Shown here: positions 5,017-30,078 of the stretch, piece after piece
Layout: each line of letters opens with the position of its first letter
Position numbering within the stretch: position 1 is the stretch's first letter
Program-made: the position numbers and the translations under genes
The notes under the pieces: model-generated
What the model saw: only the letters and a program-made list of their open reading frames with translations
Database searches by the model: none
Told to the model about the DNA's origin: nothing
Source: a virus
Taxonomy: Duplodnaviria > Caudoviricetes
DNA: 30,310 nt
Strand: one strand, 5' to 3'
Virus record (IMG/VR): IMGVR_UViG_3300037705_000202
Coordinates: 1 to 30,310 of that record

Positions 5017-5886
5017 ATGAAGATCATCGGCATATCGGGGAAAATAGGTTGCGGAAAGACGGTGCTCGGCCGGCGGTTGGTCGAGTTGCTCGGCAACGGC
5101 TGGGTAAAAGTGTCCTTTGCCGACGTACTCAAGCGTGAGGTTGCCGGGCTGTTCAGCATCCCGCTGGATTGGTGCTACAACGCCAAGGATCGGCTGGTAG
5201 ATGTCATCCACCAGTTGGCTCCGGCTCCGAAAATGACGGTACGCGAGATCCTGCAGTGGTGGGGTACCGACGTGCGCCGGAAAGAAGGTACGGAATATTG
5301 GAACAAGCAGCTGCTGGTGGTGCTGCTTGTTCTTGCCGTCAAAGGAGCCAAGGGCGCGGTGATCGACGATGTCCGTTTGCCGAACGAGGCGACTTTGGTC
5401 CGGACACTGCAAGGCGCTTTGGTCCGCCTCGATATGTATCCTGGCTACCATCAGGCCGCTGCCGGCGCCGAACATATCACGGAGACAGCCCTGGATGACT
5501 GGACGGACTGGGATTACCGCAACGCCCCGGAATTCGGCCAGCTCGATGCCGAGGCCATGCGGATCATCGAGCAGTTTTCCGTGGGCGGATTTTTCACCAA
5601 AACGAACCAGCCGGCCAACGGCGGGCTTTCCCCGGAAGAGCTGGCCGCGGCCCATAAGAAAGGCCATATTGTTTACCGGCCTAAAGTCAAGATAGAAAAC
5701 GGCAAGCCGGTTATCCGCACCCACGACGCCAAAGGCTATGTGGTCGAAAACGAAACCGGCGCCATTCGCCGTTTCAAGAAGCGCTATCGGGTATCGAAAA
5801 AGCAGCGGCGCAAACTGAAGGCCGCCGTCAAAGCCGAAGGCCGCCAGGTGGTTCCGCACCGGTCCGGCGGAGGCGCGCCGGTATGA
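5017..5886 (+). CDS. Deoxynucleoside monophosphate kinase with basic C-terminal extension
   Basis: IIGISGKIGCGKT P-loop, SFADVLK, REILQWWGTD, IDDVRLPNE motifs of phage dNMP kinases. Confidence 0.85.
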   Translation: MKIIGISGKIGCGKTVLGRRLVELLGNGWVKVSFADVLKREVAGLFSIPLDWCYNAKDRLVDVIHQLAPAPKMTVREILQWWGTDVRRKEGTEYWNKQLLVVLLVLAVKGAKGAVIDDVRLPNEATLVRTLQGALVRLDMYPGYHQAAAGAEHITETALDDWTDWDYRNAPEFGQLDAEAMRIIEQFSVGGFFTKTNQPANGGLSPEELAAAHKKGHIVYRPKVKIENGKPVIRTHDAKGYVVENETGAIRRFKKRYRVSKKQRRKLKAAVKAEGRQVVPHRSGGGAPV

Positions 5887-6677
5887 GCACCAAAATCGAA
5901 TGGGCCGAGGAAACCTGGAATCCGGTCACCGGCTGCACGCCGATCAGCCCCGGTTGCGTCAATTGCTACGCCAAGCGGATGGCCAAGCGGCTGGCCGGCC
6001 GTTGCGGCTACCCGGGTGAAAACCCTTTTGCGGTCACCCTGCATCCCGGCCGCCTGGAACAGCCCATGACCTGGAGCAAGCCCCGCCGGGTCTTCGTTTG
6101 CTCGATGAGCGACCTGTTCCACGAGGCGGTCACGGACGGCTTCCTGGTCCAGGTCTTCTCGGCCATGCGCCGGGGCATGACGGAACGCGGCCACACCTTC
6201 ATGGTGCTGACCAAGCGTCCGGCCAGGATGCGCGAGTTCCTCTCCCGGCTGCGTTGGAACGGCGGGGTCCTGGCCCTGGATGCCGTTGGCGGCCGTTTTG
6301 CCCCCATGGCCGGCGTCCAGTTGTTGCTCGGGGTAACCGTCGAAAACAGCGATCAACGCCGGAGAATCCCGGAGCTGCTCAACACCCCGGGAATTCGCCG
6401 CTTCGTCTCGGTGGAGCCGATGCTGGAGCCGATAGATCTCACCCCCTGGCTGCCCTGGCTGGACTGGGTGATCTGCGGCGGCGAGACCGGCCCGGGCCAT
6501 CGCCCCATGTCCGGCCTTTGGGCCATGGATCTGCTGGAACAGTGCCGGGCCTACGGGGTGCCGTTTTTCTTCAAGCAGATGGCCGGCAAGTCCACCCCCC
6601 TGCCCAAATCGCTCCAGGTCCGGGAATTCCCGGCCGGGATGCTAGATGCCGCCCCGGAGAAGCAAAACCATGTGTGA
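5883..6677 (+). CDS. Phage Gp37/Gp68 family protein (DUF5131)
   Basis: TKIEW..TWNPVTGCTPISPGCVNCYA, FVCSMSDLFH, LTKRP, SVEPML, WVICGGETG, PFFFKQ. Confidence 0.92.
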   Translation: MSTKIEWAEETWNPVTGCTPISPGCVNCYAKRMAKRLAGRCGYPGENPFAVTLHPGRLEQPMTWSKPRRVFVCSMSDLFHEAVTDGFLVQVFSAMRRGMTERGHTFMVLTKRPARMREFLSRLRWNGGVLALDAVGGRFAPMAGVQLLLGVTVENSDQRRRIPELLNTPGIRRFVSVEPMLEPIDLTPWLPWLDWVICGGETGPGHRPMSGLWAMDLLEQCRAYGVPFFFKQMAGKSTPLPKSLQVREFPAGMLDAAPEKQNHV

Positions 6678-7071
6678 CAAAATCGAAAAATGCGCCCGCT
6701 ATGCCAGGCTGGTCTGCGAAGAGCTGGATGGCGGCGACGGCTGTTTTCTCCAGCGCGATGAAAGCAGAGGCAGCCAAATATTGACAACCATGTCAGGAGC
6801 CCCCATGGAAAATCAGGAATTACTTGAAGCCAACGAGTCGCTGAAAAAGACCAGCCGGATCCTCTTCGGCGAAGCGGCGGAGCTCCGGCTGGTCGATCCG
6901 CGTGTCGGAGGATCTCGACAGGATCCTGGAGCAATCCAGCAAGACCGACCTCACCGTGCTGATCTCCGCCAAGGAGGAAGCCAAGCGGAAAGTCCTGGCG
7001 GAGGCCACCCCGTCCAACCTAGCCGCCCTGGACAAGGCCACCAGAATGCTGGAGGCCAATCGCATGAGTAA
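6670..7071 (+). CDS. Hypothetical protein (3' part overlaps TerS and is doubtful)
   Basis: ATG at 6670 overlaps the DUF5131 stop; overlaps the next ORF by 170 nt. Confidence 0.35.
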   Translation: MCDKIEKCARYARLVCEELDGGDGCFLQRDESRGSQILTTMSGAPMENQELLEANESLKKTSRILFGEAAELRLVDPRVGGSRQDPGAIQQDRPHRADLRQGGSQAESPGGGHPVQPSRPGQGHQNAGGQSHE

Positions 7072-7648
7072 GGCGATCAAGGAGAAAGCGGCCAAGGACA
7101 AGGCTGAGAAATGGAAAACCAAGGCCGATGTGCTCGAATACCTGAAGAAGAAATGGGCGGTTGAGAAATCGACTTTTTACAACCACTCTAATCCGGCGCA
7201 CCGAGATGGCGGAAAGCTCAACAAGGTCAAGGGCTGGTACCTGAAAACCCATGTCGACGCCTATGCCGAGAAGTACCTGGTGCCGCTCGATGGAGCCACG
7301 GACGACGAGCAAAGCGGTTTGCAGCGGGACAAGCTCCAGGGCGAGATCCGCTACCAAACGGTCCGGTCCGAAAAGGCCGAGTTGGAGCTGGACATCCTCA
7401 AAGGGAAATACCTGCCCCGCGACCAGTTCGACCTGGAGATGGCCGGCCGGGCCGGGGTGCTTGACAACTCGTTCAACCACCTGATCGAGTCGAGGGCACA
7501 GGAGATCATCGCCCTGGTCGGCGGCGATCAGAAAAAGGCCCCGGAGTTTATCCACTTCATGAAGGTTGCAAAAGACCAGATGTTGTCGGAGTTCGCCACC
7601 ACTAAGGAATTTCAGGTAATCGTCAAGCCGGGCAAAACCGGCGAATAA
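6902..7648 (+). CDS. Putative terminase small subunit (Nu1-like; HTH + coiled coil)
   Basis: HTH-like '[22 protein letters not shown]'; Nu1-like '[16 protein letters not shown]'; upstream of GpA; start codon uncertain. Confidence 0.65.
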
Positions 7649-7657
7649 GGAGAAACC

Positions 7658-7903
7658 ATGGAACTGAACCCGAATCACCAGGTGACAAGAACGGTCAGCG
7701 AGCACTGGCACAAGGTAGCCGCCTTGCTGATGAAAAAGGCCGGGATGGAGCATGTCGTCATCACCGAGGCCGATATTGCGGCGCTGGAAAATTTAAACCA
7801 GGCGATAGTCATCGATGCCCGGGCGGATGGCCTCCACGTCAGCCTGGTCGATATGGCCACCGCCGAGAAGCTGGCCCGGCAAGAAGGAGGGTTGCCGACA
7901 TGA
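7658..7903 (+). CDS. Hypothetical phage protein (81 aa)
   Basis: AAGGAG RBS; ATGA overlap with the next gene. Confidence 0.75.
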
Positions 7904-8136
7904 AAAACAAGCTGATCGATCTGAACAACCATCTATTCGCGCAACTGGAACGGCTGTCCGACGAAGAGACCACCGGAGAGAAACTGAAAGAGGAAATTGA
8001 GCGCTCCCGGGCTGTCGGGACCATTGCCCGCAACATCATCGACAATGCGGCTCTCGCTCTGGCCGCCAGAAAGGCTTTGTACGACAAGGTGCCAAATCTG
8101 CCAAAGATGCTCGATGAAGGCAATGAAGAAAAGTAA
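7900..8136 (+). CDS. Small phage protein of a type often found just upstream of HNH genes (78 aa)
   Basis: [22 protein letters not shown]...EIERSRAV motif; GGAGG RBS. Confidence 0.75.
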
Positions 8137-8755
8137 ACCGCATCGTTATACTCCCGGGCAGATCAGTTTCCTGCAGGAGAAGTACCAGGAATATTCCCTG
8201 CCGATCCTGGTGTGGGCCTTTAACCAGACGTTCGGAACCTCCCTGGCCGAGAGCCGGATCCGTTCGGCGCTGCGCAATCACCACATCCGGTCCGGGCGCA
8301 CCGGCTGGTTCAGACAGGGGGGCATCTCGTGGAATCTCGGCAAAAAGGGGTATATGGGCGCCAATGCCACCAGTTTCCGGCCTGGCAACTTGCCGCACAA
8401 CCATAAACCGCTTTGGAGCGAGAGGGTGGGGAAGGATGGCTATATTGAGATGTCCGTCCCCGAGCGCAACCCTTACACCGGCTTTCCGACCCGTTACAAA
8501 CACAAGCACGTCTGGCTCTGGGAACAGGCCAACGGCCGGAAGCCGAAGGGGACGGCGGTGATTTTCAAGGACGGCGATATTCGCAACTTCGAGCCTGATA
8601 ACCTGGTGCTGGTTACCCGAACCGAGTTGCTGGCCATGAATCTGCACGGTTACAAGGACCAGCCCGCGGAGCTAAAACCTTCGATCCTGGCTCTGGCGAA
8701 AGTTGAGGCCAAGGCAGGAATAAGGACGCGTCCCGCTCGCGGACGAAATAGGTAA
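8123..8755 (+). CDS. HNH-family endonuclease (210 aa)
   Basis: '[33 protein letters not shown]' HNH_3-type motif; F.PGN.PHN repeat; stop codon lies inside the attC core at 8750-8756. Confidence 0.8.
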
Positions 8756-8839
8756 CGATTGAAGCCAGGCGACCGCGCCTGGGAAACTTGCCCGCAAGGC
8801 CGTCCGCTCCCCGCGGTCGGCTGGGCTGACTGGTTGTAC
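8750..8839 (-). other. attC: attC site (90 bp), distal
   Basis: Minus strand: R'' GTACAAC, 5-nt CAGTC, L'' AGCCCAGC ... L' CCTGGCT, 6-nt TCAATC, R' GTTACCT; extra C in L'' (extrahelical G on bottom strand); stem continues CGACCGCG/CGCGGTCG. Confidence 0.85.
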
Positions 8840-8861
8840 TTCAAAGCCGAGGAGGAACGAT

Positions 8862-9065
8862 ATGCCGAAAGCAGCAATTGCCATAGACGATTGGAAGTTG
8901 CCTATTTTTGAGCGCCATTTGGCCGGTGCTGGGTATGAGTTTGGACAACACCCCGGCCTGACCGGAAACACTTTGACGCTTACCGTGACCACACCATGCT
9001 TAAACGCTTTGGCGGTGGTGGTGCGGGAAGCAAATACCGAAGCTGCAAAAAGGAGAATGCAATGA
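8862..9065 (+). CDS. Cassette 3 ORF a, hypothetical protein (67 aa)
   Basis: GAGGAGG RBS; ATGA coupling to the next ORF; inside cassette 8756-9389. Confidence 0.75.
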   Translation: MPKAAIAIDDWKLPIFERHLAGAGYEFGQHPGLTGNTLTLTVTTPCLNALAVVVREANTEAAKRRMQ

Positions 9066-9382
9066 GCGAACAACCGAAAACCTGCATGATCGACGGCGAA
9101 GCCGTGGATCCCAACCACCGAGATATTAACCCGGCCACTGGGATGCAAAAGGGCTACGTCGTTCTGTGTCCTGAAGAGAGAGCCAAGGGGTTTGTCCGGC
9201 CGGTGCGCCGGAGCTACAGACACACCAAATGCGGCACGGTGACGACGATGGGCCAAGCCCTGGCCGAGACATACGCCCGTGACCCGAAGTTTTACAGCGG
9301 CACATTCTGTTGTGGTTGTGGCACCCATTTTCCGGTTGCGGGTTTCACATGGGAGCCGGATGGCTCCGTAGTGGGTTCTTGA
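9062..9382 (+). CDS. Cassette 3 ORF b, putative Zn-binding phage protein (106 aa)
   Basis: AGGAG RBS; HTKC...CCGC metal-binding pattern; stop 1 nt before the attC core at 9384. Confidence 0.75.
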   Translation: MSEQPKTCMIDGEAVDPNHRDINPATGMQKGYVVLCPEERAKGFVRPVRRSYRHTKCGTVTTMGQALAETYARDPKFYSGTFCCGCGTHFPVAGFTWEPDGSVVGS

Positions 9383-9383
9383 A

Positions 9384-9472
9384 GTACAACGCCGAACTAA
9401 CCAGACCGGGGCTGGTGGCCGGAGATAGTTCACGCCGGATTTGCCCCGGTCTGGTTTAGAGATTTGTTAAAC
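9384..9472 (-). other. attC: attC site (89 bp), middle
   Basis: Minus strand: GTTTAAC-AAATC-TCTAAACCAGACCGGGGC ... GCCCCGGTCTGGTTAGT-TCGGC-GTTGTAC; 16-bp stem with one unpaired base on the R''/L'' arm. Confidence 0.88.
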
Positions 9473-9491
9473 CTTTTTATGGCTAGACAAT

Positions 9492-9701
9492 ATGCTGAAA
9501 CGATTGATTTGCAGGACGCTCGGGCATCGCTGGCGGCGTGAAACCATTACCCTGGAGGGCAACCAAGGGCTGGTTTACCATCGCCATGAGTGCCTTCGGT
9601 GCGGGAGAATATACAATGGTCATTTCTTCCATCCGCTGTGCATTTGCCCCGAAACGATGATTGATAGCCATTGCCCTGTCTGTTATGGGCATGAGGTTTA
9701 A
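9492..9701 (+). CDS. Cassette 2 ORF, Cys/His-rich prophage protein (DUF1660-like N-terminus, 69 aa)
   Basis: KRLICRTLGHRW...HECLRCG plus C.C...HCPVC; TAA lies inside core GTTTAAC (9696-9702); RBS weak. Confidence 0.6.
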   Translation: MLKRLICRTLGHRWRRETITLEGNQGLVYHRHECLRCGRIYNGHFFHPLCICPETMIDSHCPVCYGHEV

Positions 9702-9784
9702 CGGCTTTAATCACTGGAGCCGCCGCCGAGATTGACCGAAGGCCACCGGGCTTTCTCGGCTTCCAGTGCATTAATTTGTTGGCC
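9696..9784 (-). other. attC: attC site (89 bp), proximal
   Basis: Minus strand: R'' GGCCAAC, AAATT, L'' AATGCACT, GGAAGCCG ... CGGCTCC, L' AGTGATT, AAAGCC, R' GTTAAAC; two unpaired bases on the R'' arm (C and T on bottom strand). Confidence 0.9.
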
Positions 9785-9800
9785 ATTTATAGGTGCGGGG

Positions 9801-10001
9801 ATGGCGGTACAGATAGATATTTTGAGCACTAAGAAAAAACGAGGTTGCCCTACTTGCGGGGGCGTTGACGCCAAATCGTGTATGCGCTGCTACGGGAAAA
9901 CCAGAATGTGTGATTGGTTTAATACGTACTCGGGATGGTCACACTACGGCGAATTGAGCGTAGAAGAACGCAACGAAGCCGGCGCGAAGTATAATTTATA
10001 A
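9801..10001 (+). CDS. Cassette 1 ORF, small CxxC-CxxC Zn-finger protein (66 aa)
   Basis: CPTCGG...CMRCYG; fills cassette 9702-10011 between the attC and attI cores. Confidence 0.65.
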   Translation: MAVQIDILSTKKKRGCPTCGGVDAKSCMRCYGKTRMCDWFNTYSGWSHYGELSVEERNEAGAKYNL

Positions 10002-10005
10002 TTCA

Positions 10006-10030
10006 GGCCAACCACCGTTATAAAGCCCAC
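10006..10030 (-). other. attI: Candidate attI site
   Basis: Minus strand TTATAAC-GGTG-GTTGGCC; core is complementary to cassette 1's R'' (9778-9784); no attC-length hairpin or partner core here; 87 nt upstream of the intI ATG. Confidence 0.6.
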
Positions 10031-10099
10031 CCGGCGGCCTAATCCATTTACCAGCCGGGGAAGTCACGCGCCGCAAACCTTGAATTGGAGGGAAAAGCT

Positions 10100-11098
10100 A
10101 TGAATCAAGCAGCATTGCAAAGGCCGCCGGCAGCGGGGGTTGGTAATCAACCTCGGCTCAAGGAGTTGGTTCATGGCGTTTGCCGGCGCCGGCATCTGGC
10201 TATTCGCACCGAGGCGGCTTACTGGCACTGGATTGTTGACTTTTGCCGCCACTATCAAAACCAAATTCATCCCCGCGAGATGGGCGACCAGGAGGTAACT
10301 GGCTACCTCACCCATTTGGCGGTTAAGCGCGGGGTGGCGGCGGCTACGCAGAATCAGGCCTTTAATGCCCTGCTGTTTCTTTATCGCGATGTGCTGTCCA
10401 AGCCCCTCGGCAATATCGACGCCATGCGGGCCAAGCGCACCCGGCGGCTGCCGGTGGTTCTTTCCCGGGAAGAGGTAAAGCGGCTGCTGGGCAGGATGAC
10501 CGGCCAGCACTGGCTGATTGCTTCGCTGCTGTACGGCTCCGGACTGCGGCTAATGGAGGCCATGCGTTTGCGGGTGCAGGATGTGGATTTTGAGCGCAGG
10601 CAGATCACCGTGCGCCTGGGCAAGGGCAATAAGGACCGGGTTGTGCCCATGCCCGGCGCCATCGTTGGCGAGCTGCAGCGCCACCTGGCCGCGGCGGAGC
10701 GCTTGCACCAGCAGGACCGGGCCGGCAAAATCCCCACTTCGATGGAGCCCTCCCTGGCCCGCAAGTTCCAGTTGGCGCCCTTCACCTGGGGCTGGTTTTA
10801 CGTATTTCCGGCCCGGCAGCGTGCTATTGATCCGCTCTCCGGCAAGCTCAAGCGCCATCACCTGCACGAAAGCGCCATCCAGAAAGCCGTTCACCAGGCG
10901 GCTCGAACGGCCAAGATTACCAAGCGCTGCGGCTGCCATACCCTGCGCCACTCTTTCGCCACCCACCTGCTGGAGGCCGGGCGGGATATCCGCACCATCC
11001 AGGAGCTGCTTGGACATAAAGACCTGAGCACTACCATGATCTACACCCATGTGATGAAGAAGGATTCCATACTCAGCCCCATGGACATGGACGATTAA
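10100..11098 (+). CDS. intI: Integron integrase (tyrosine recombinase, IntI family), 332 aa
   Basis: N-terminal 'RTEAAYWHW..F...HP..MG..EV..YLTHLA...VAAATQNQAFNALLFLYR'; catalytic R (GLRLME), K (GKGNKDR), HTLRH, LLGH, Y (TTMIYTH); integron-specific insert 'SLARKFQLAPFTWGWFYVFPA...DPLSGKLKRHH'; GGAGGG RBS. Confidence 0.95.
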   Translation: MNQAALQRPPAAGVGNQPRLKELVHGVCRRRHLAIRTEAAYWHWIVDFCRHYQNQIHPREMGDQEVTGYLTHLAVKRGVAAATQNQAFNALLFLYRDVLSKPLGNIDAMRAKRTRRLPVVLSREEVKRLLGRMTGQHWLIASLLYGSGLRLMEAMRLRVQDVDFERRQITVRLGKGNKDRVVPMPGAIVGELQRHLAAAERLHQQDRAGKIPTSMEPSLARKFQLAPFTWGWFYVFPARQRAIDPLSGKLKRHHLHESAIQKAVHQAARTAKITKRCGCHTLRHSFATHLLEAGRDIRTIQELLGHKDLSTTMIYTHVMKKDSILSPMDMDD

Positions 11099-11100
11099 CG

Positions 11101-13035
11101 GTGGAGTCAGTGCAAAACCACATCCCCGGCCTCACCTCAGCCGTGATCATCCGCTCCGATGCCCCCTGGCTGCCGGAGTCGCTGCGCGATCGGCCCGACG
11201 ATGTCGAGATCCGCTTCCGGTTTTCAGAAGGTGAGCGGCGGATCTATAAGCGCAAGCGTTTCAAGGGTAAGCCGAGCGAGTGGGTTGAAAAAAATGTGGT
11301 TGTTACCTATGGGCCATATGACGGCGGCAAGTTCGATTTTTCCGTCAGCCCTTATACTCCCGGCGTTCTTGATGCCTGCTTTTTCCGGTCGGTCCAGGAG
11401 ATCTCAGTCTGTTCCGCCCCGCAGGTTTTGAAGACTACCCTTGCCCTCCTCTTCCTGGCATACGCTGCCGCGGTTGACCCCGGCCCGGCCCTGGTGGTTT
11501 ATCCGGACAAGATCACCGCCGGCGACAACAACCGGGACCGCATACAGCCGATGTTTACCAGGTCCCCAGCCTTAAAGCCCTTGCTCACCGGGTACGACGA
11601 CGATATGTCGTCAATCAGGGTCAAGCTGGTATCGATGATCATCTATATGGCCTGGGCCGGATCGAAGATAGCCACCGCCAACAAATCGATTCGGTACCTA
11701 ATCAACGACGAAAAAGACCTGTCCCGAGTCGGCTCGGCAGATGAAGCCGACGATCGGACCAACTCGTATCGATACAACAAAAAGATCCTCAACCTATCCA
11801 CAACTGAATATGAAGCCGGGCCGATCTGGCAGGACCTCACCGTTCGGGCCGAAGTGATTTTCGAATTCTGGGTGCGTTGCCCCAAGTGCCTCACTTTGCA
11901 GGTAATGCATTTCGGAACAAAGGATTCCCCATCCGGAATCAAGTGGCCCGAGGATGAGCGGGATCCGGAGCGGATCAAGAACCATGACCTAGCCTGGTAT
12001 CAATGTGGTTGCGGCGCCAAGTGGGACAGCCACATGCGTGACAAGGCCGTGCAGATGGGAGAATGGCGGGCCAAGGAAGACGGCCGGGAACTCTTTGCCT
12101 ACCTCGAGGCGTACCGGCCGGTGCATATCGGCTTCCACCTGCCGAGCTGGGTTTCGAGTTTCATCACCCTGGGCAAGGTAGCCGCCGCATTCCTGGCCGG
12201 AGCCAAGGACAAGCTGCAGCTAAAGCACTTCACCAACAAGCACGCCGCCGAACCATGGCTCGAATACCACCAGGAGACCAAAGTCGACCGAATCATGGCC
12301 CTGAAGGATGACCGCCCTTGGGGCCGGGTCCCCGGGAACAACCAGGTGGCCACCTTGGTCTACGGAGCCGACAGCCAGGATGACGGCTTTTACTATACGA
12401 TCATGGCCGTGGGCTGGGGGCAGATCCAACCACTCTGGAAGGTTCGGAGTGGATTTGTCACCAGCAAGGAGGCTTTGGCCCGGGTGTTATGGGAAGACCA
12501 GTATCTTGATGCCGCCGGAACTCCCTATCTGGTTCAATTCGGCTTGATTGACTCCCAGGGTCATCGGACCAAGGAGGTCTACGACTTCTGCCTGGACCAT
12601 CGCGGTCAGATTCTGCCGGCCAATGGCCAACAGCGCATGCGGCAGCCGTACACTTACACCAACTTGGAATTTTACCCCGGGAAAAAGGGCGCCATCCCTG
12701 GCGGTCTGCAACTGGTCAATGTCAACACCACCCATTTCAAAAACGATCTCGACCGTCGTCTTGATGTGGCGCCGGCCGATCCTGGTGCCATCCTCCTGGA
12801 CGCCGACACCGACCAAGACTATGCGCTGCAGTTGGACGCCGAATATCGCGATGAAAATGGGATTTGGCAACAGAAAGGAAGTCGGGCAAACCACCAATGG
12901 GATTGTTTAAACCTCTGCCTGGTGGCCATTGAAATATTGGCCGTCAAGGTCTGGCCCATCCCCGGGCAAGCGCCGGTTGAGCAGCAGCGGGAGAAAAAAC
13001 AGTCACAGGGTTCACAATCAAGGAGGAGATGGTAA
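11101..13035 (+). CDS. Terminase large subunit, lambda GpA family
   Basis: Walker A-like SAPQVLKTT, Walker B INDE, 'LSTT', CPKC...CGCG Zn motif, GADSQ nuclease motif, C-terminal 'NHQWDC'. Confidence 0.92.
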   Translation: MESVQNHIPGLTSAVIIRSDAPWLPESLRDRPDDVEIRFRFSEGERRIYKRKRFKGKPSEWVEKNVVVTYGPYDGGKFDFSVSPYTPGVLDACFFRSVQEISVCSAPQVLKTTLALLFLAYAAAVDPGPALVVYPDKITAGDNNRDRIQPMFTRSPALKPLLTGYDDDMSSIRVKLVSMIIYMAWAGSKIATANKSIRYLINDEKDLSRVGSADEADDRTNSYRYNKKILNLSTTEYEAGPIWQDLTVRAEVIFEFWVRCPKCLTLQVMHFGTKDSPSGIKWPEDERDPERIKNHDLAWYQCGCGAKWDSHMRDKAVQMGEWRAKEDGRELFAYLEAYRPVHIGFHLPSWVSSFITLGKVAAAFLAGAKDKLQLKHFTNKHAAEPWLEYHQETKVDRIMALKDDRPWGRVPGNNQVATLVYGADSQDDGFYYTIMAVGWGQIQPLWKVRSGFVTSKEALARVLWEDQYLDAAGTPYLVQFGLIDSQGHRTKEVYDFCLDHRGQILPANGQQRMRQPYTYTNLEFYPGKKGAIPGGLQLVNVNTTHFKNDLDRRLDVAPADPGAILLDADTDQDYALQLDAEYRDENGIWQQKGSRANHQWDCLNLCLVAIEILAVKVWPIPGQAPVEQQREKKQSQGSQSRRRW

Positions 13036-13827: not shown

Positions 13828-15320
13828 TGGCCGACCCCCTGCGCCGCGTCGGCAACCTGGTCGACTCCCTGGTCGGGGTTTTCGCCCCCGGCGCCCAATT
13901 GCGGCGGCGGGCCCTGCGCACCGCCCTCTACGCCGCCGCCCAGACCAGCGACAGCCACTATGGCTGGAATCCGGTCAATTCCAGCGTCAACGATATCATC
14001 CGCGGCTCCTCCTCCACCGTTCGCGCCCGCGTCCGGCAACTGGTCCGCGACTTTCCCTATCTGGCCCGGGCGGTAAACGCCATGGTCGACTACACGGTCG
14101 GCGACGGCATCACTTTCCAGGCCCGGATTCAGACCAACAAGGGGTTGCTCGACAAGCGGCGCAACCAGGAAGTGGAAGACGCCTTCCGCTTCTGGGCCGA
14201 CCAGGCCGACGCCGCCGGCAAGCTCCACTATCACGAGCTGATGCAGCTGGCCCGGCGCCAGGACGTGGAGTGCGGCGAGTTCCTCCTGGTCCAAAAGTAC
14301 CTCACCGATCCCCGCCGCTACCTGCCTTTGGCCCTGCAGCTTTACGAGCCGGACTGGCTTACCGATTACGCGGTCAAGCCGGAGGCCGGCAACAAGGTGG
14401 ACCAGGGCGTCGAGTTCGAGCCGGCCACCGGCCGGGTGGTCGCCTATCACTTCACCGATCCGGACGGCTGGGGCAAGTCGCAGCGGATCACCGCCGAGTA
14501 CGTCACCCACGGTTTCAGCACCCTGCGGCCCGGCCAGCTGCGCGGCATCACCGTCCTGGCCCCGTCCGTGCTCCTGGCCCGCGACCTGGATGACATGATG
14601 GGCGCCGAGCTGGACGGGGCCAAGCTGGCCGCCAAGTGGCTGGCCCTGGTCAAGACCGCCGATCCCCTGGGCCGCCAGATCGGCAACGCTCTGCAGACCG
14701 CCGACGCCAGCGGCAAGAAGATCGAGTCCCTGGAAAACGGCATCATCGAGTACCTGCGCCCCGGCGAGGAAGTGGAGCTGCAGGCCAACCCCCGTCCCGG
14801 CGCCAACTTCCCGCCCTATGTCCGGCTGCTGCTGACCATGGTCTCGGTGGTTTCCGGGGTGCCCTACGAGATTTTAAGCGGCGACTACCAGGGGTTGAAC
14901 TATTCGACCAGCAAGATGATCCGCTCCGATTTCGCCCACCAGCTCCGGCCCATCGTCAAGCGCCACGTCCGGCAGTTCTGCGAGCCGACCCGGCTGGCCT
15001 TCATGGACGCGGCGGTCCTGGCCGGCAAGCTCTCCCTGCCCGGCTATTACCTGGCCCCGCAGCCCTGGCAGCGCGGGCAATGGCAGCCGCCGGGGATGGA
15101 GCCGGTGGACCCGGCCCGCGAGACCAAGTCCACCATCGACCAGATCAAGAACGCCCTGCGCTCGCCGCAGGAGGTTTGCCAGGCCCGGGGCCGCGACTTC
15201 GAGGAAGTGGTCCAGGAGTGCGCCGCCGCCCGGCAGATCCTTAAGGACAATGGCCTGGAGATCACCGAAGTCAGCACGGCCCTGGCCAACAACCCGGCCG
15301 CCGTCGACCAACAAAAGTGA
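13827..15320 (+). CDS. Portal protein, lambda family (497 aa)
   Basis: RARVRQLVRD, RPGQLRGI, GVPYEILSGDYQGLNYS, VDPARE motifs; TGATG coupling. Confidence 0.95.
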   Translation: MADPLRRVGNLVDSLVGVFAPGAQLRRRALRTALYAAAQTSDSHYGWNPVNSSVNDIIRGSSSTVRARVRQLVRDFPYLARAVNAMVDYTVGDGITFQARIQTNKGLLDKRRNQEVEDAFRFWADQADAAGKLHYHELMQLARRQDVECGEFLLVQKYLTDPRRYLPLALQLYEPDWLTDYAVKPEAGNKVDQGVEFEPATGRVVAYHFTDPDGWGKSQRITAEYVTHGFSTLRPGQLRGITVLAPSVLLARDLDDMMGAELDGAKLAAKWLALVKTADPLGRQIGNALQTADASGKKIESLENGIIEYLRPGEEVELQANPRPGANFPPYVRLLLTMVSVVSGVPYEILSGDYQGLNYSTSKMIRSDFAHQLRPIVKRHVRQFCEPTRLAFMDAAVLAGKLSLPGYYLAPQPWQRGQWQPPGMEPVDPARETKSTIDQIKNALRSPQEVCQARGRDFEEVVQECAAARQILKDNGLEITEVSTALANNPAAVDQQK

Positions 15321-15327
15321 GGATGAG

Positions 15328-17448
15328 ATGAGCAAGAGAAACCGAACCCCCCGCCTCTCCCAACGCAGCGCCCCGGTCGCCCCGGCCCCTAACCAGGTGC
15401 CGGCCGGCCTGGATCGGGCCTGCGGCTATCGCTCGATGTCCCTGCGCCTGTCGTCCGACGGCACCCCGGCCAGCCTGGATGAGAAAAACCGCTCGGTCGA
15501 AGTGGTGGCCGCCACCGAGACCCCGGTCCAGGTTTTCGACTGGGAGCGCTGGGAAGTGGTGCATGAAGTGCTGTTGATGTCCGGCCTGGAGATGCCGCCA
15601 TCCCGGCAGGTGGTGCTGCTCGATTCGCATTACCGGGGCGGGGCCGAGTCGGTGATCGGTTCGGCCCGCGAGCTGCAGGTGGCCGGCGCCGATCTGCAGG
15701 CCCGGGCCCACTTCACCAGCCAGCCCGAGGGCGAAGGCCCCTACAGCAAACTGCGCGAGGGGCACCTCACCGACTTTTCGGTGGGCTACCGGATCGACAA
15801 GGCGGAATGGGTGCCGGAAGGTGAAACCGCCACCATCGCCGGCCGCAAGTTCAGCGGCCCGGTCAAGGTGGTGACCGCCTGGAAAATCAGGGAATTAAGC
15901 GTCTGCCCGATCGGGGCCGACGAATTGGCCAAGGCAAGGGCAGAAAACCCCGCGCCGCAAACTCATAAGGAGAACGACATGGATAAAGCCATGCGGGCGT
16001 TCCTCGAACGGCAGGGACTGTCCAAAGACGCAACCGATGAAGAAGCCAAGCGCTTCCTGGATGAACTCAACACCAGGGGCGCGGTAATCACGCCGCCCGC
16101 CACTCCGGCGGCCACCCCCACCGCCGAAGAGCTGGAGAAGATTCGCTCCGAGGCGGTCGGCAAGGAGCGCGGCCGGATCGGCGAGATTGACGCCATGTGC
16201 CGCAAGTACGGCTGCGAGGAGCTGGCCGGGCCGATGATCGTCGCCGGCGACAGCGTCGACGCCGCCCGGGTCAAGGTCCTGGAGCAGGTGGCCACCCGTC
16301 GGCAGGAGCCCAACAACCTGGGCTTCCGGGTCGAGGTCGGGGCCGAGGCCCGGGAGAAGTTCCAGGCCGCCGCCAGCGACGGCCTGATGCTGCGGGCCGG
16401 GATCGCCGCCCCCCAGGGCCGGCAGATGGCCCCGGGCGCCGACGAGCTGGCCGGCTTCACCCTGCGCGAACTGGCCCGCCATGCCTTGGTGGTGGCCGGC
16501 GAGCGGGTGCCCTCCAACCCGATGGAGATGATCGGCCGGGCCCTGACCAGCGCCGACCTGCCGGTGATCCTCGGCAACACCGCCAACCTCTCGCTGCAGT
16601 CCGGCTTCGACGCCGCCGACGAGACCTATGCCCAGTGGTGCGGCGAGGGCTCGGTCTCCGACTTCAAGACCCACACCGCCGCCCGGGCCAGTGAGTCCGA
16701 CGACCTGGCCGAAGTGCCGGACGGCGGCCAGTACAAATACGGCGACCGCGAAGAGCAGTCGGAGCAGTACTCCATCGCCACCTACGGGCGGATCTTCCCG
16801 ATCACCCGGCAGTCGATCATCAACGACGAGCTGGGCGCCCTGACCACCGTGCCCTTCGAGCACGGCGAGGCCGCCAACCGCAAGATCGGTGACGTGGCCT
16901 ACGCGGTGCTCACCGCCAACGCCAATATGGGCGACGGGGCCGCCCTGTTCGTGGCCGCGCACGGCAACCTGGCCGCCGGCGGCAATGTCGGCGCGGTGGC
17001 CATCGCCACCATGGCCGAGGCCATCCGGGCCATGAAGACCCAAAAGGACATCAAGGGCAAGCGCCGCCTCAACATCCGGCCGATGTTCTACCTGGCCCCG
17101 GTCACCGCCGAAGGGGCGGCCGAGGTCTTCTTCCGCTCCGAGCGCTTCACCGACTCCGACACCGTCGCCACCGACAGCTCGCTGGCCGGCAGCCGGGTCA
17201 ACCCCTACTCCGGCAACTACATCACCCGGGTCTACGATTCCCGCCTGGATGACGACTCCACCACCGCCTGGTACCTGTCGGCCAAGAAGGGCCAGTTCGT
17301 CAAGCTCTTCTTCCTGAACGGCGTCAAGCGCCCCTACCTGGAAGTCCAGCGAGGCTGGACCGTGGACGGGGTCGAGAACAAGGTCCGGATCGACGTGGGC
17401 GCCAAGGCCATGAACTGGAAGGGCGGCTACAAGAACCCCGGCGCGTGA
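15328..17448 (+). CDS. Prohead protease (HK97-type) - scaffold - major capsid protein fusion (706 aa)
   Basis: Protease motifs LLDSH, FSVGY, ELSVCPIGAD; capsid motifs 'SVSDFK', 'TYGRIFPITRQSIINDELG', 'KVRIDVG...WKG.YKNPG'. Confidence 0.9.
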   Translation: MSKRNRTPRLSQRSAPVAPAPNQVPAGLDRACGYRSMSLRLSSDGTPASLDEKNRSVEVVAATETPVQVFDWERWEVVHEVLLMSGLEMPPSRQVVLLDSHYRGGAESVIGSARELQVAGADLQARAHFTSQPEGEGPYSKLREGHLTDFSVGYRIDKAEWVPEGETATIAGRKFSGPVKVVTAWKIRELSVCPIGADELAKARAENPAPQTHKENDMDKAMRAFLERQGLSKDATDEEAKRFLDELNTRGAVITPPATPAATPTAEELEKIRSEAVGKERGRIGEIDAMCRKYGCEELAGPMIVAGDSVDAARVKVLEQVATRRQEPNNLGFRVEVGAEAREKFQAAASDGLMLRAGIAAPQGRQMAPGADELAGFTLRELARHALVVAGERVPSNPMEMIGRALTSADLPVILGNTANLSLQSGFDAADETYAQWCGEGSVSDFKTHTAARASESDDLAEVPDGGQYKYGDREEQSEQYSIATYGRIFPITRQSIINDELGALTTVPFEHGEAANRKIGDVAYAVLTANANMGDGAALFVAAHGNLAAGGNVGAVAIATMAEAIRAMKTQKDIKGKRRLNIRPMFYLAPVTAEGAAEVFFRSERFTDSDTVATDSSLAGSRVNPYSGNYITRVYDSRLDDDSTTAWYLSAKKGQFVKLFFLNGVKRPYLEVQRGWTVDGVENKVRIDVGAKAMNWKGGYKNPGA

Positions 17449-28266: not shown

Positions 28267-30078
28267 ATGAAACGAATCCAGATTGATCTGGAAATCATCG
28301 AAGGCGGCCGGTTCCGGCAGCCCTTCATCTGGGAGAGCGGTCCCACCGAAGCCACGGCCGTGCCGGTCGACCTTACCGGCAACAGCGCCCTGATGTCAGT
28401 GCGGAAAAAGCTGACGGACCAAGTGCCGCTGCTCGACTACAGCACCGCGGGCGGCATCCTGGAGATCGCCGATCAGGTAACCAATAAGGGCCAAATCAAC
28501 CTCGATGACCTGGGCCTCACCACTCCGGGGATCTGCGCCGATCACAAAGACTTCACCGGGGTGTACGACCTGTTCATCTACGCCGCCGACGGCACCCCCA
28601 GGGTCTGCTTCTACGGCCCGGTAAAAACCTGGGCGGCGGCCCCCGCCCCTGGGAAGAGGAGGCCTAAGATGAGCACCGACGTGATCAAGGTCGTCACCAC
28701 CGAGGTCCAAGTTGTCAAAGTAATCACCGAAGGCCCGTCAGGCCCGGCAGGCCCGCAAGGCGACCCCGGCCCCGGCTACAATCTCGGCCTGGAGCAATTC
28801 TACCAGGCTGTGGCGGCCGGCACCTGCACCGTCTGCGCGGTTGGGACGTCTTTAACCGAAGCGGTAGAAATACAGCTTGAACGGCAGAACTCCTACATCT
28901 TTCAGATTATGAGGGGGTTGCGATCGCGTTTCCCAAACTGCGAATTTACCCTGATCAACTTGAGCCTGGGAGCGCGGGGCTTGGATGACTACGTTGACCC
29001 TGATTACATCGCCGTGACTTTTCCGGATGACCCAACCTCTAATTTTTACCGTGGCGCTGGTGATCCTGACGTGTGGCCGGGGGGGGCTGAACTCGGAAAA
29101 TCCTGGCGCGACCACGCCCGAGACGCAAATGCCGATTTGTTCATTATAGACCACGGCCTCAACGACCTTCAATTTTGCGCCCAGTTCTGGGCCAGCCTGG
29201 TCTCGGCCATTGCCTACGCCAACACTTGGCCAAAGGTTCCGTCTATCCTCCTCAGCACCAACATCCTTGCAACTACGGCGGCAGCGCCTTACGACGCACT
29301 ACAGCCGATCTATGAGGCCAGGGCCAGGCTGACTCGGTTGGCGGCTGAGACCTACGGTTGCGGACTGATCGATCCTAATCGGTACTGGCGGTTAGCCCGG
29401 GATGGAAAGGACGAATTGCGGCCGATCTTGGAGCCGGTCTCCGACCTGGCGACCTGGGAATTAGATAGCGGCAGCGCGCCCTCGGTTCAAACGGCTAACG
29501 CAATTACAGCGGCGGCTGTATGCATTTTGAAATCGACAGCAGTCCAACACTATAACGCCGAAATAGACCTGGACTATACGCCCTCTAATTCAACCACTCA
29601 GGTGAAATTTGGAGTTCGCCGGCAACCGGCTGACGCATGGACCAAAGGGCTATACGTCAGCCGATCAGGGTCGGTGTTGGAAGTTTACGAGTACGAAAAT
29701 GTAGTGCAGTCATGGACCGTGGCAACGGCCGCAGTCGGGGTTAAAGAAGATCTCCGGATCAGGTACGAAAACCATCGAGTCATGATCTGGCGCAATGGAA
29801 CTCTTATGGGAGTAGTGCCGACAACCACTTTGTGGCGCGGTTCCATGTTCATTAATGTCCGCCACGCCGCTCTGACAAATATCAGCCTTGACTCTGGGGA
29901 TTTCTTCGGTGCCCAAGCTGCGACCCACACTAATGCAGAGCTTATCGGAACCAAAACAGTTGAGGACTGGGACGCCGGAGATCATTCAATCGGCGGAAAC
30001 TCCGTTAAACATCCGACCCGAATCGGAACACTGCACGTATTTGGGCAAGCTGTCGTCGAGTTTGTGGCGAAGTTGTGA
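28267..30078 (+). CDS. Receptor-binding/tail-fibre-like protein: adaptor domain + collagen linker + SGNH hydrolase with inserted beta-sandwich
   Basis: 'PVDLTG..ALMSVR...GVYDL' adaptor; GPSGPAGPQGDPGPG; SGNH blocks VGTSLT, NLSLG, DHGLND, KHP. Confidence 0.7.
   Translation: MKRIQIDLEIIEGGRFRQPFIWESGPTEATAVPVDLTGNSALMSVRKKLTDQVPLLDYSTAGGILEIADQVTNKGQINLDDLGLTTPGICADHKDFTGVYDLFIYAADGTPRVCFYGPVKTWAAAPAPGKRRPKMSTDVIKVVTTEVQVVKVITEGPSGPAGPQGDPGPGYNLGLEQFYQAVAAGTCTVCAVGTSLTEAVEIQLERQNSYIFQIMRGLRSRFPNCEFTLINLSLGARGLDDYVDPDYIAVTFPDDPTSNFYRGAGDPDVWPGGAELGKSWRDHARDANADLFIIDHGLNDLQFCAQFWASLVSAIAYANTWPKVPSILLSTNILATTAAAPYDALQPIYEARARLTRLAAETYGCGLIDPNRYWRLARDGKDELRPILEPVSDLATWELDSGSAPSVQTANAITAAAVCILKSTAVQHYNAEIDLDYTPSNSTTQVKFGVRRQPADAWTKGLYVSRSGSVLEVYEYENVVQSWTVATAAVGVKEDLRIRYENHRVMIWRNGTLMGVVPTTTLWRGSMFINVRHAALTNISLDSGDFFGAQAATHTNAELIGTKTVEDWDAGDHSIGGNSVKHPTRIGTLHVFGQAVVEFVAKL

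Follow-up and report, generated by a model that had tools for sequence, protein, structure and literature searches.

A complete integron between phage packaging genes

We analyzed a virus record of 30,310 bases (IMG/VR record IMGVR_UViG_3300037705_000202; Duplodnaviria, Caudoviricetes), referred to in its entirety as the window. The window is a partial lambda-like phage genome that reads on the + strand throughout, and between positions 8750 and 11098 it contains the parts of an integron: an intact integron integrase gene (intI), a candidate attI and three gene cassettes with their attC sites. A likely small terminase subunit gene (terS, 6902–7648, +) is followed by three resident phage genes encoding proteins of 81 and 78 amino acids (aa) and an HNH protein (7658–8755, +), the cassette array, intI, and a large terminase subunit gene (terL) of the lambda gpA type (11101–13035, +; PF05876, PF20454 and phrog_15). 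The seamless join to phage genes described in the initial annotation is evident at both ends, as the stop codon of the HNH gene (TAG, 8753–8755) overlaps the terminal R' core of the array and terL starts 2 nt past the intI stop. The array was also said to lie between terS and terL. The terL side of this statement stands, but three ordinary genes separate terS from the array, and the TerS assignment is weak (phrog_57, E 2.3e-5), although consistent with its position, since homologues directly precede terL in many related loci.

The assembly of the window is backed by contigs from several sediment runs. The integron locus is not a chimera, because contigs of other runs bridge the HNH gene, attC3 and cassette 3, and likewise intI and terL.

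The integrase

IntI is a protein of 332 aa (10100–11098, +). It scores 399 bits against TIGR02249 (cut-off 265), whereas the XerC and XerD models give approximately 155 bits against cut-offs of approximately 330. The closest solved structure is Vibrio IntI4 (2a3v, E 5e-83), and the alignment spans the integron insertion. Residues R150, K175, H280, R283, H306 and Y315, which we take to be catalytic from the IntI1 numbering, are invariant in 15 relatives. In a tree of 143 rows the protein falls among IntI proteins, within a well-supported group of 14 rows whose context-known members are all phage or prophage; this tree was made with FastTree only, has one long outgroup row, draws its bacterial sample from pattern matches and includes 14 rows without known context. 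Several further groups in the tree are made up of viral contigs only. The initial annotation is thus borne out in calling this an intact integron integrase: a grouping with XerC/D or phage lysogeny integrases was looked for, and profile, tree and structure alignment, including the insertion, all indicate IntI. Identity to IntI1 is 43%, and no transposase or resistance family was found among the 30 ORFs scanned, in line with the earlier observation that none flanks the element, so that this is no integron of class 1. As intI is intact and lies 316 nt from attC1, it is also not a cluster of attC sites lacking integron-integrases (CALIN).

attC sites, attI and core matching

With the minus strand read as the top strand, all three attC sites have the geometry R''-5-L''(8)..L'(7)-5/6-R'. 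Sites were scored with a covariance model of our own, built from 40 attC sites of bacterial integron loci, which together with TIGR02249 was used in place of the IntegronFinder profiles. The model is independent of the window but not of the site definition, because the same scanner picked the training sites. It gives 40.8 bits for attC1 (9696–9784, minus strand, 89 bp), 32.0 bits for attC2 (9384–9472, minus strand, 89 bp; fold z -4.4) and 17.3 bits (E 0.044) for attC3 (8750–8839, minus strand, 90 bp), and with filters off these are exactly the three matches in the window at E<=10. The geometry scanner returns five candidates in 30 kb, with attC1–3 as the top three scores; shuffled windows contain 1.6 scanner matches on average, and three same-strand matches within 1.1 kb occurred in 0/200 of them. 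The three sites of 89–90 bp proposed initially are therefore recovered by both detectors. The usual extrahelical G, located on the bottom (+) strand, is present in attC3 alone; an extrahelical base has been linked to strand choice (Bouvier 2009, PMC2727003). Within the array the minimum-energy fold of attC3 differs from the attC fold, and the re-formed circular sites all fold fully. No attC-to-attC direct repeats were found among the 20 largest repeat families in a repeat search.

After insertion by IntI, a cassette retains an R'' core that complements the next R' core towards attI. All three window cassettes show this relationship, each R'' complementing the preceding R' or attI core at 7/7 bases (that of attC3 pairs with the R' of attC2). 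Across five arrays 13/15 cassettes match perfectly and two have one mismatch; the match to a site's own R' is only 3–5 of 7 bases. Core matching places the attI core at 10006–10012, and the candidate attI (10006–10022, minus strand) comprises this R core, which complements the R'' of cassette 1 at 7/7 bases, and adjoining L-box-like bases. The predicted crossover is between 10011 and 10012. Nucleotide similarity to relatives starts at 10008–10010, the attI flank is kept in six aligned loci, and one related contig (L012) starts at the AAC of the attI core, in support of the attI predicted at the outset. The polarity of attC relative to intI is canonical.

A 9-base motif at the intI stop (11096–11104, +) is an inverted copy of the attI flank (10020–10012, -), and the window has only these two copies. 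Self-insertion of intI-attI as a circle at the GTT before terL was considered and dropped as a general mechanism, as the 9-base inverted repeat is absent from relatives. A conserved hairpin that we saw by eye between attI and intI was also discarded, its consensus fold having compensatory changes at 0/12 pairs. In the related locus L011 (9251–9440) there is a 190-bp attC-like site with a ribosome-binding site and a start codon within its loop.

Cassettes with inverted genes

The cassette genes are of phage type and lie on the + strand, in line with the phage operon. This orientation, which escaped the initial annotation, is opposite to the bacterial layout, in which genes are on the attC top strand and face away from intI. 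Read along the + strand, an attC is succeeded by a leader and then by a gene whose stop falls within or close to the following R' core. Cassette 1 (9702–10011, minus strand, 310 bp) contains a + strand gene (9801–10001) for a 66-aa protein with two CxxC motifs, for which 10/10 candidate proteins are homologous at 71–88% identity. Cassette 2 (9390–9701, minus strand, 312 bp) has a + strand gene for 69 aa (9492–9701) whose stop is inside the R' core and which has one viral homologue. Cassette 3 (8756–9389, minus strand, 634 bp) holds two overlapping + strand genes, 8862–9065 (67 aa) and 9062–9382 (106 aa, Cys-rich). Relatives of the 106-aa protein are encoded in 189 viral stretches, and the Atlas clusters for cassette 3 are 83–91% viral. 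Judged by these homologues, the + strand frames are real genes for cassettes 1 and 3, with thinner support for the frame of cassette 2.

In and beside related arrays, PHROGs matches were obtained for 14/36 plus-strand frames versus 0/31 minus-strand frames (63/102 listed frames and four window frames were submitted). The matched cargo of relatives includes three DNA methyltransferases, a Lar-like protein, an FtsK-gamma protein and PAPS reductases. We also compared where genes end. At 111 sites in 41 viral or prophage loci, genes end at R' (inverted) at 41 sites and at R'' (canonical) at 23, with both at 17 and neither at 30; the figures for 59 sites in 18 bacterial loci are 1, 28, 5 and 25. 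From 139 model hits this test omitted those on the plus strand, those downstream of intI, two at contig edges and those below 20 bits. Ten of the 23 canonical viral sites are in a single locus, L149, whose IntI groups with bacterial rows. A longest-ORF count (19 inverted versus 26 canonical viral cassettes; 6 versus 27 bacterial) is too noisy in GC-rich DNA, and the stop-position test was used instead. In one cassette of L091 (1531–2080) the leader is long and AT-rich and two small genes are present, of which the second encodes an XRE-type helix-turn-helix protein; this cassette may carry its own promoter.

Related loci and the attI-intI module

Eight distinct loci encode IntI proteins of at least 82% identity: the window, L091, L003, L011, L012, L092, L093 and L171. 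Viral relatives with intI next to terL, suggested as a check on the annotation, were readily found. In 7/8 loci (window included) the intI stop and the terL start coincide or are no more than 2 nt apart; the exception is L093, where an HNH gene follows intI ahead of an unrelated TerL type. Sharing at the DNA level with the seven relatives is confined to 10008–11091, a 1.08-kb attI-intI module (78–83%). The TerS, TerL, portal and primase proteins of the window are only 22–49% identical to those of the relatives, and the five arrays with upstream DNA (the window and four relatives) have no cassette in common. A fixed gene set was looked for, and relatives instead carry different cassettes at the terS-terL locus.

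Pairs of intI genes at 84–96% amino-acid identity differ at 31–44% of fourfold sites, so that intI is under strong purifying selection. Fourfold differences in intI are below those in terL in all 15 pairs, though only slightly in the two pairs that share a TerL type, which suggests that the attI-intI module is reassorted between phages. More broadly, a scan of 61 downstream frames from the 80 best viral IntI loci gave 10 that encode TerL; other genes downstream of viral intI encode excisionases, Mor-type activators, HNH proteins, primases and ParB. A start codon lies at the intI stop in 42/75 viral loci versus 7/48 bacterial loci.

Other arrangements are found among these loci. Very close IntI proteins (L117, L118, L119, L122 and L127) are encoded ahead of terL in part of the phages and ahead of a terS-like gene in the rest. 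In a second layout (L136, L137, L142, L148, L151, L153 and L170), attC sites are downstream of a viral intI on the + strand, and the IntI of the GenBank virus Rctr41k (L251), annotated as xerD, groups with some viral loci having attC downstream of intI. In L257 (5522–7512), a terL-related phage, the integron is downstream of terL, and a homologue of the 67-aa cassette gene of the window ends at the terminal site. A Desulfatitalea prophage (L254, 4484–4550) has a single strong attC approximately 1.45 kb before terL.

Signs of cassette mobility

A look for excised-cassette junctions in reads had been suggested as a check, and in contigs a rejoined form was identified for cassette 2. A self-junction in which 9699 is joined to 9388 occurs in a 56-nt contig of sediment run X1 and a 342-nt contig of run X4, the latter consisting of the 312-bp cassette and a 30-base overlap. 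This 9699|9388 joint is precisely what a crossover between the R' cores of attC1 and attC2 would yield. A 55-nt contig of run X2, matched over one half, may contain the same junction, and a near-identical attC2 site flanked by other genes occurs in the same run. Contigs of X3 and X5 pass through attC2 unbroken. None of the sediment contigs checked lacks cassette 2, although contigs drop rare forms, and a tandem copy in part of the population is for that reason likelier than a free circle. The junction is thus likely a duplication, judging from the contigs. Cassette duplication is a prediction of the replicative model (PMC3458562), and in L092 an identical cassette occupies the first and third positions (305/305 bases). 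The junctions, this duplicate and a PAPS-reductase cassette shared by L092 and L157 with the same attC all indicate that cassettes move at the G|TT crossover.

Distant phages contain some of the same whole cassettes, in two cases beside a different attC body. In L274, a phage with 48% TerL identity, the gene part of cassette 3 (8833–9390) is found at 85% nucleotide identity, but the attC body beside these genes is a different 57-bp site; L339 has a third. In most relatives the cassette 3 gene pair lacks an attC, and in three phages it is found with attC bodies that all differ. Among viral loci with the 106-aa gene, the model matches in 4/80 and the match flanks the gene or gene pair in three; because attC is so rarely beside it, this is mostly an ordinary phage gene. 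The PAPS-reductase gene has two different attC bodies behind the same R'' core, the second a short attC in L156. A site in L156, which precedes a different gene, is 89% identical to attC1. We infer either exchange at R'' or repeated formation of cassettes.

Flanking genes, lifestyle and host

The genes ahead of the integron encode a P4-type primase, a DnaG-like primase, a nucleotide kinase and a DUF5131 protein in addition to the likely TerS and the HNH protein, and intI is followed by genes for TerL, a lambda portal, a protease-capsid fusion and tail proteins. The prohead protease-major capsid fusion is at 15250–17448, and a late gene (28267–30078) has a weak GDSL/SGNH hydrolase match. The DUF5131 gene is resident in the window (5883–6677) but lies between attC sites in L157 (5997–6716). 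The pair formed by the 78-aa and HNH genes recurs in several other phages; the former (7900–8136) matches phrog_2044, whose RNA polymerase beta subunit label is probably a mislabel. An Rfam scan of the window gave two weak chance matches, both outside the integron region.

The window of 30,310 bases contains no lysogeny integrase. A second tyrosine recombinase is found in L011 and in the 96% complete L092 record, and L012, from a Desulfurivibrionaceae bin, extends into host genes (glutamate kinase, aldehyde dehydrogenase, Obg and RNase E/G). These relatives point to a likely temperate phage and, as its likely host, a sediment bacterium of the Desulfobulbales type. The bin holding L012 also has a separate chromosomal integron with canonical cassettes, the IntI of which is 48% identical to that of the window.

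Proposed function

We consider it quite probable that a lambda-like phage here has a resident, complete integron in which intI directly precedes terL and the cassette genes are inverted, with IntI likely shuffling the cassettes and phage transcription likely reading the whole. The virus likely picks up and shuffles accessory genes, because relatives hold other cassettes and a cassette is found rejoined at the crossover. IntI would insert, duplicate and excise cassettes at the candidate attI. Rightward phage transcription would read the resident genes, cassettes, intI and terL in one run, and IntI would be made together with terminase in lytic growth, when replication presumably exposes single strands in which attC can fold. 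In each cassette a putative ribosome-binding site lies just past R'' and the coding part ends at or near the R' core. The classical cassette promoter (Pc) cannot read these cassettes because their genes face the other way, and the inverted cassettes would need none, since each carries its own translation signals. A crude scan for a sigma-70-like sequence on the minus strand gave none in 6500–11300, where a Pc would face the non-coding strand. The newest cassette would enter at attI, farthest from an upstream promoter, which is the reverse of bacterial integrons, and the attI-intI module may be reassorted among phages at gene boundaries. None of three LexA/SOS box motifs, which may not be those of the host, occurs in four loci examined, and terminator scans were at chance level or empty.

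Several observations weigh against this reading. No promoter was located, as a single sigma-70-like match was found versus 2.1 expected. The extrahelical base is non-standard in 2/3 attC sites (attC1 and attC2). The four cassette genes have no function match in NCBIfam, Pfam, PHROGs or PADLOC, and Atlas has only unnamed viral clusters for them; cassette 2 has an equally long frame on the minus (canonical) strand (9692–9483), for which there are no matches. In the stop-position test 23/111 viral sites look canonical and 47 are ambiguous, and the p-value (1e-8) is overstated, because the sites are not independent and two detectors were used. The integron is dispensable, since intI is adjacent in only 3/69 terL-related loci with at least 600 nt upstream (11 shorter loci, one with a partial intI, are outside this count). 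Phage arrays also exist without intI (L355, 97% complete), and L003 has neither attI nor the front of intI: its array is joined to an internal AAC of intI (6099–6110) and the first quarter of the gene is gone, apparently by self-inactivation through a secondary site. One attC of the host integron in the L012 bin resembles attC3 (59/94 aligned columns). Host and phage thus share an attC family, so that the host enzyme could act on phage arrays and could have made the cassette 2 junction.

Some of these points would also fit a different account, in which attI-intI is a hitchhiking module at gene starts in essential phage operons, the cassettes ride along as near-neutral passengers, and some or even most of the shuffling is the work of a host IntI. 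The sharp module edges, the lack of the module in most terL relatives, the arrays without intI and the attC family common to host and phage agree with it, as does the position of intI before unrelated genes (terL, terS-like, HNH, excisionase, Mor-type activator and primase) even in tight IntI clades. However, intI is under strong purifying selection, the cargo of relatives includes DNA methyltransferases and a Lar-like protein, all oriented for expression, and a consistent one-way facing is not expected of passengers. We regard this account as unlikely. Far less probable is the passive carriage of a fragment that the phage took from a host chromosomal integron through faulty excision or transduction, as in published Vibrio and Shewanella cases (Qi 2023, PMC9892861). 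The resemblance of attC3 to an attC of the relative's host might suggest such an origin, and two clade members come from bacterial genome bins, but both sit in phage context. The host of that relative has a distinct, canonical integron, the phage cargo is phage-type and inverted, no host genes flank the element, and its position recurs in seven divergent phages. The IntI clade of viruses and prophages likewise makes transduced host DNA unlikely. Capture from the host is largely refuted, and the earlier proposal of a phage-resident platform is supported in its place.

It could also be argued that the hairpins are terminator-like spacers or dead relics in a static array and that the junction is an artefact of assembly or slippage. 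The weak score and alternative fold of attC3 would be in keeping with this, and the junction is known from contigs only, of runs that may all belong to one campaign, X1 possibly being the source sample itself. Against this, cores match in 13/15 cassettes, the joint shares only four bases, lies exactly at the crossover and occurs in two runs, one cassette is duplicated in L092, and whole cassettes are common to different phages. A static array is scarcely credible.

A broader proposal is that temperate phages run a mirror-image integron system. It would comprise several virus-specific IntI lineages, with attI-intI modules set at gene starts within phage operons, terL being the gene behind the module repeatedly, and a pool of inverted cassettes drawn on by phages at large, for which ordinary phage genes are the raw material and are joined to attC bodies by recombination at R''. 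We put this forward tentatively, as it may well not hold; the cassette 3 gene pair and the PAPS-reductase gene, with their differing attC bodies, are the examples that point to it.

Integrons have been treated as bacterial adaptation devices and, lately, as stores of anti-phage defences. At this locus selection on the phage side maintains the integron machinery, which is rewired in such a way that the cargo would be expressed by phage transcription and not from Pc. If true, part of phage mosaicism could arise by a site-specific route, and this would extend to counter-defence genes such as the methyltransferases and Lar-like protein of relatives. Occurrences of the same gene without attC or with different attC bodies are natural before-and-after pairs for how cassettes are made, and a mirror-image system, if real, would lay open the process by which gene cassettes arise. 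The standard E. coli assay can be applied directly to the 1.08-kb module and the three short sites.

Comparison with known integrons

The premise that integrons are normally chromosomal or carried by plasmids and transposons needs amending, as integrons in phages have already been published. For 10,705 genomes, Qi 2023 (PMC9892861) reported three complete integrons, each derived from a host or from class 1. One is a subset of a chromosomal integron of Vibrio, another consists of class 1 mosaics carried by a P1 phage-plasmid, and the third, in a cryptic prophage, is of Shewanella type, with an IntI 95% identical to that of the host. Phage attC sites described there were recombined by IntI1. The window resembles these cases in having a complete integron in the genome of a likely temperate phage, and methyltransferase cassettes, known from its relatives, occur there too. 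In contrast, no virus-linked IntI clade, placement in a packaging operon or genes inverted relative to attC are stated in the main text of that paper. Our search of 50,697 phage records gave nine with an IntI-like match, the Qi 2023 cases among them. We found no published report of a resident inverted phage integron within a literature that covers few subscription journals.

The window shares with canonical integrons (IntI1/attI1 and Vibrio IntI4) the integron insertion in IntI, the geometry of attC, an intI that diverges from attC polarity, an attI beside the intI start, core matching and replicative cassette duplication (PMC3458562). Unlike in these, the cassette genes of the window occupy the bottom strand, their stops fall at R' and their ribosome-binding sites follow R''; intI directly adjoins an essential gene of the phage, and no Pc or LexA-type box was found. 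The inverted-integrase group (Treponema type; Cury 2016, PMC4889954) is similar in that intI and cassette genes are co-directed. However, in that group intI is flipped and the cassettes are normal, whereas here the polarity of intI and attC is normal, with intI on the + strand, the top strand of attC on the minus strand and the array lying upstream of intI, and the inversion affects the genes within the cassettes. Insertion at attG (bioRxiv 10.1101/2022.09.11.507474) demonstrates use of non-att sites by IntI, comparable to the L003 array at an internal AAC of intI, but concerns cassettes entering bacterial chromosomes rather than a phage platform. The window locus contributes a coupling to terL that holds across divergent phages, a module with sharp edges, a junction found in nature, and pairs in which the same gene has different attC bodies.

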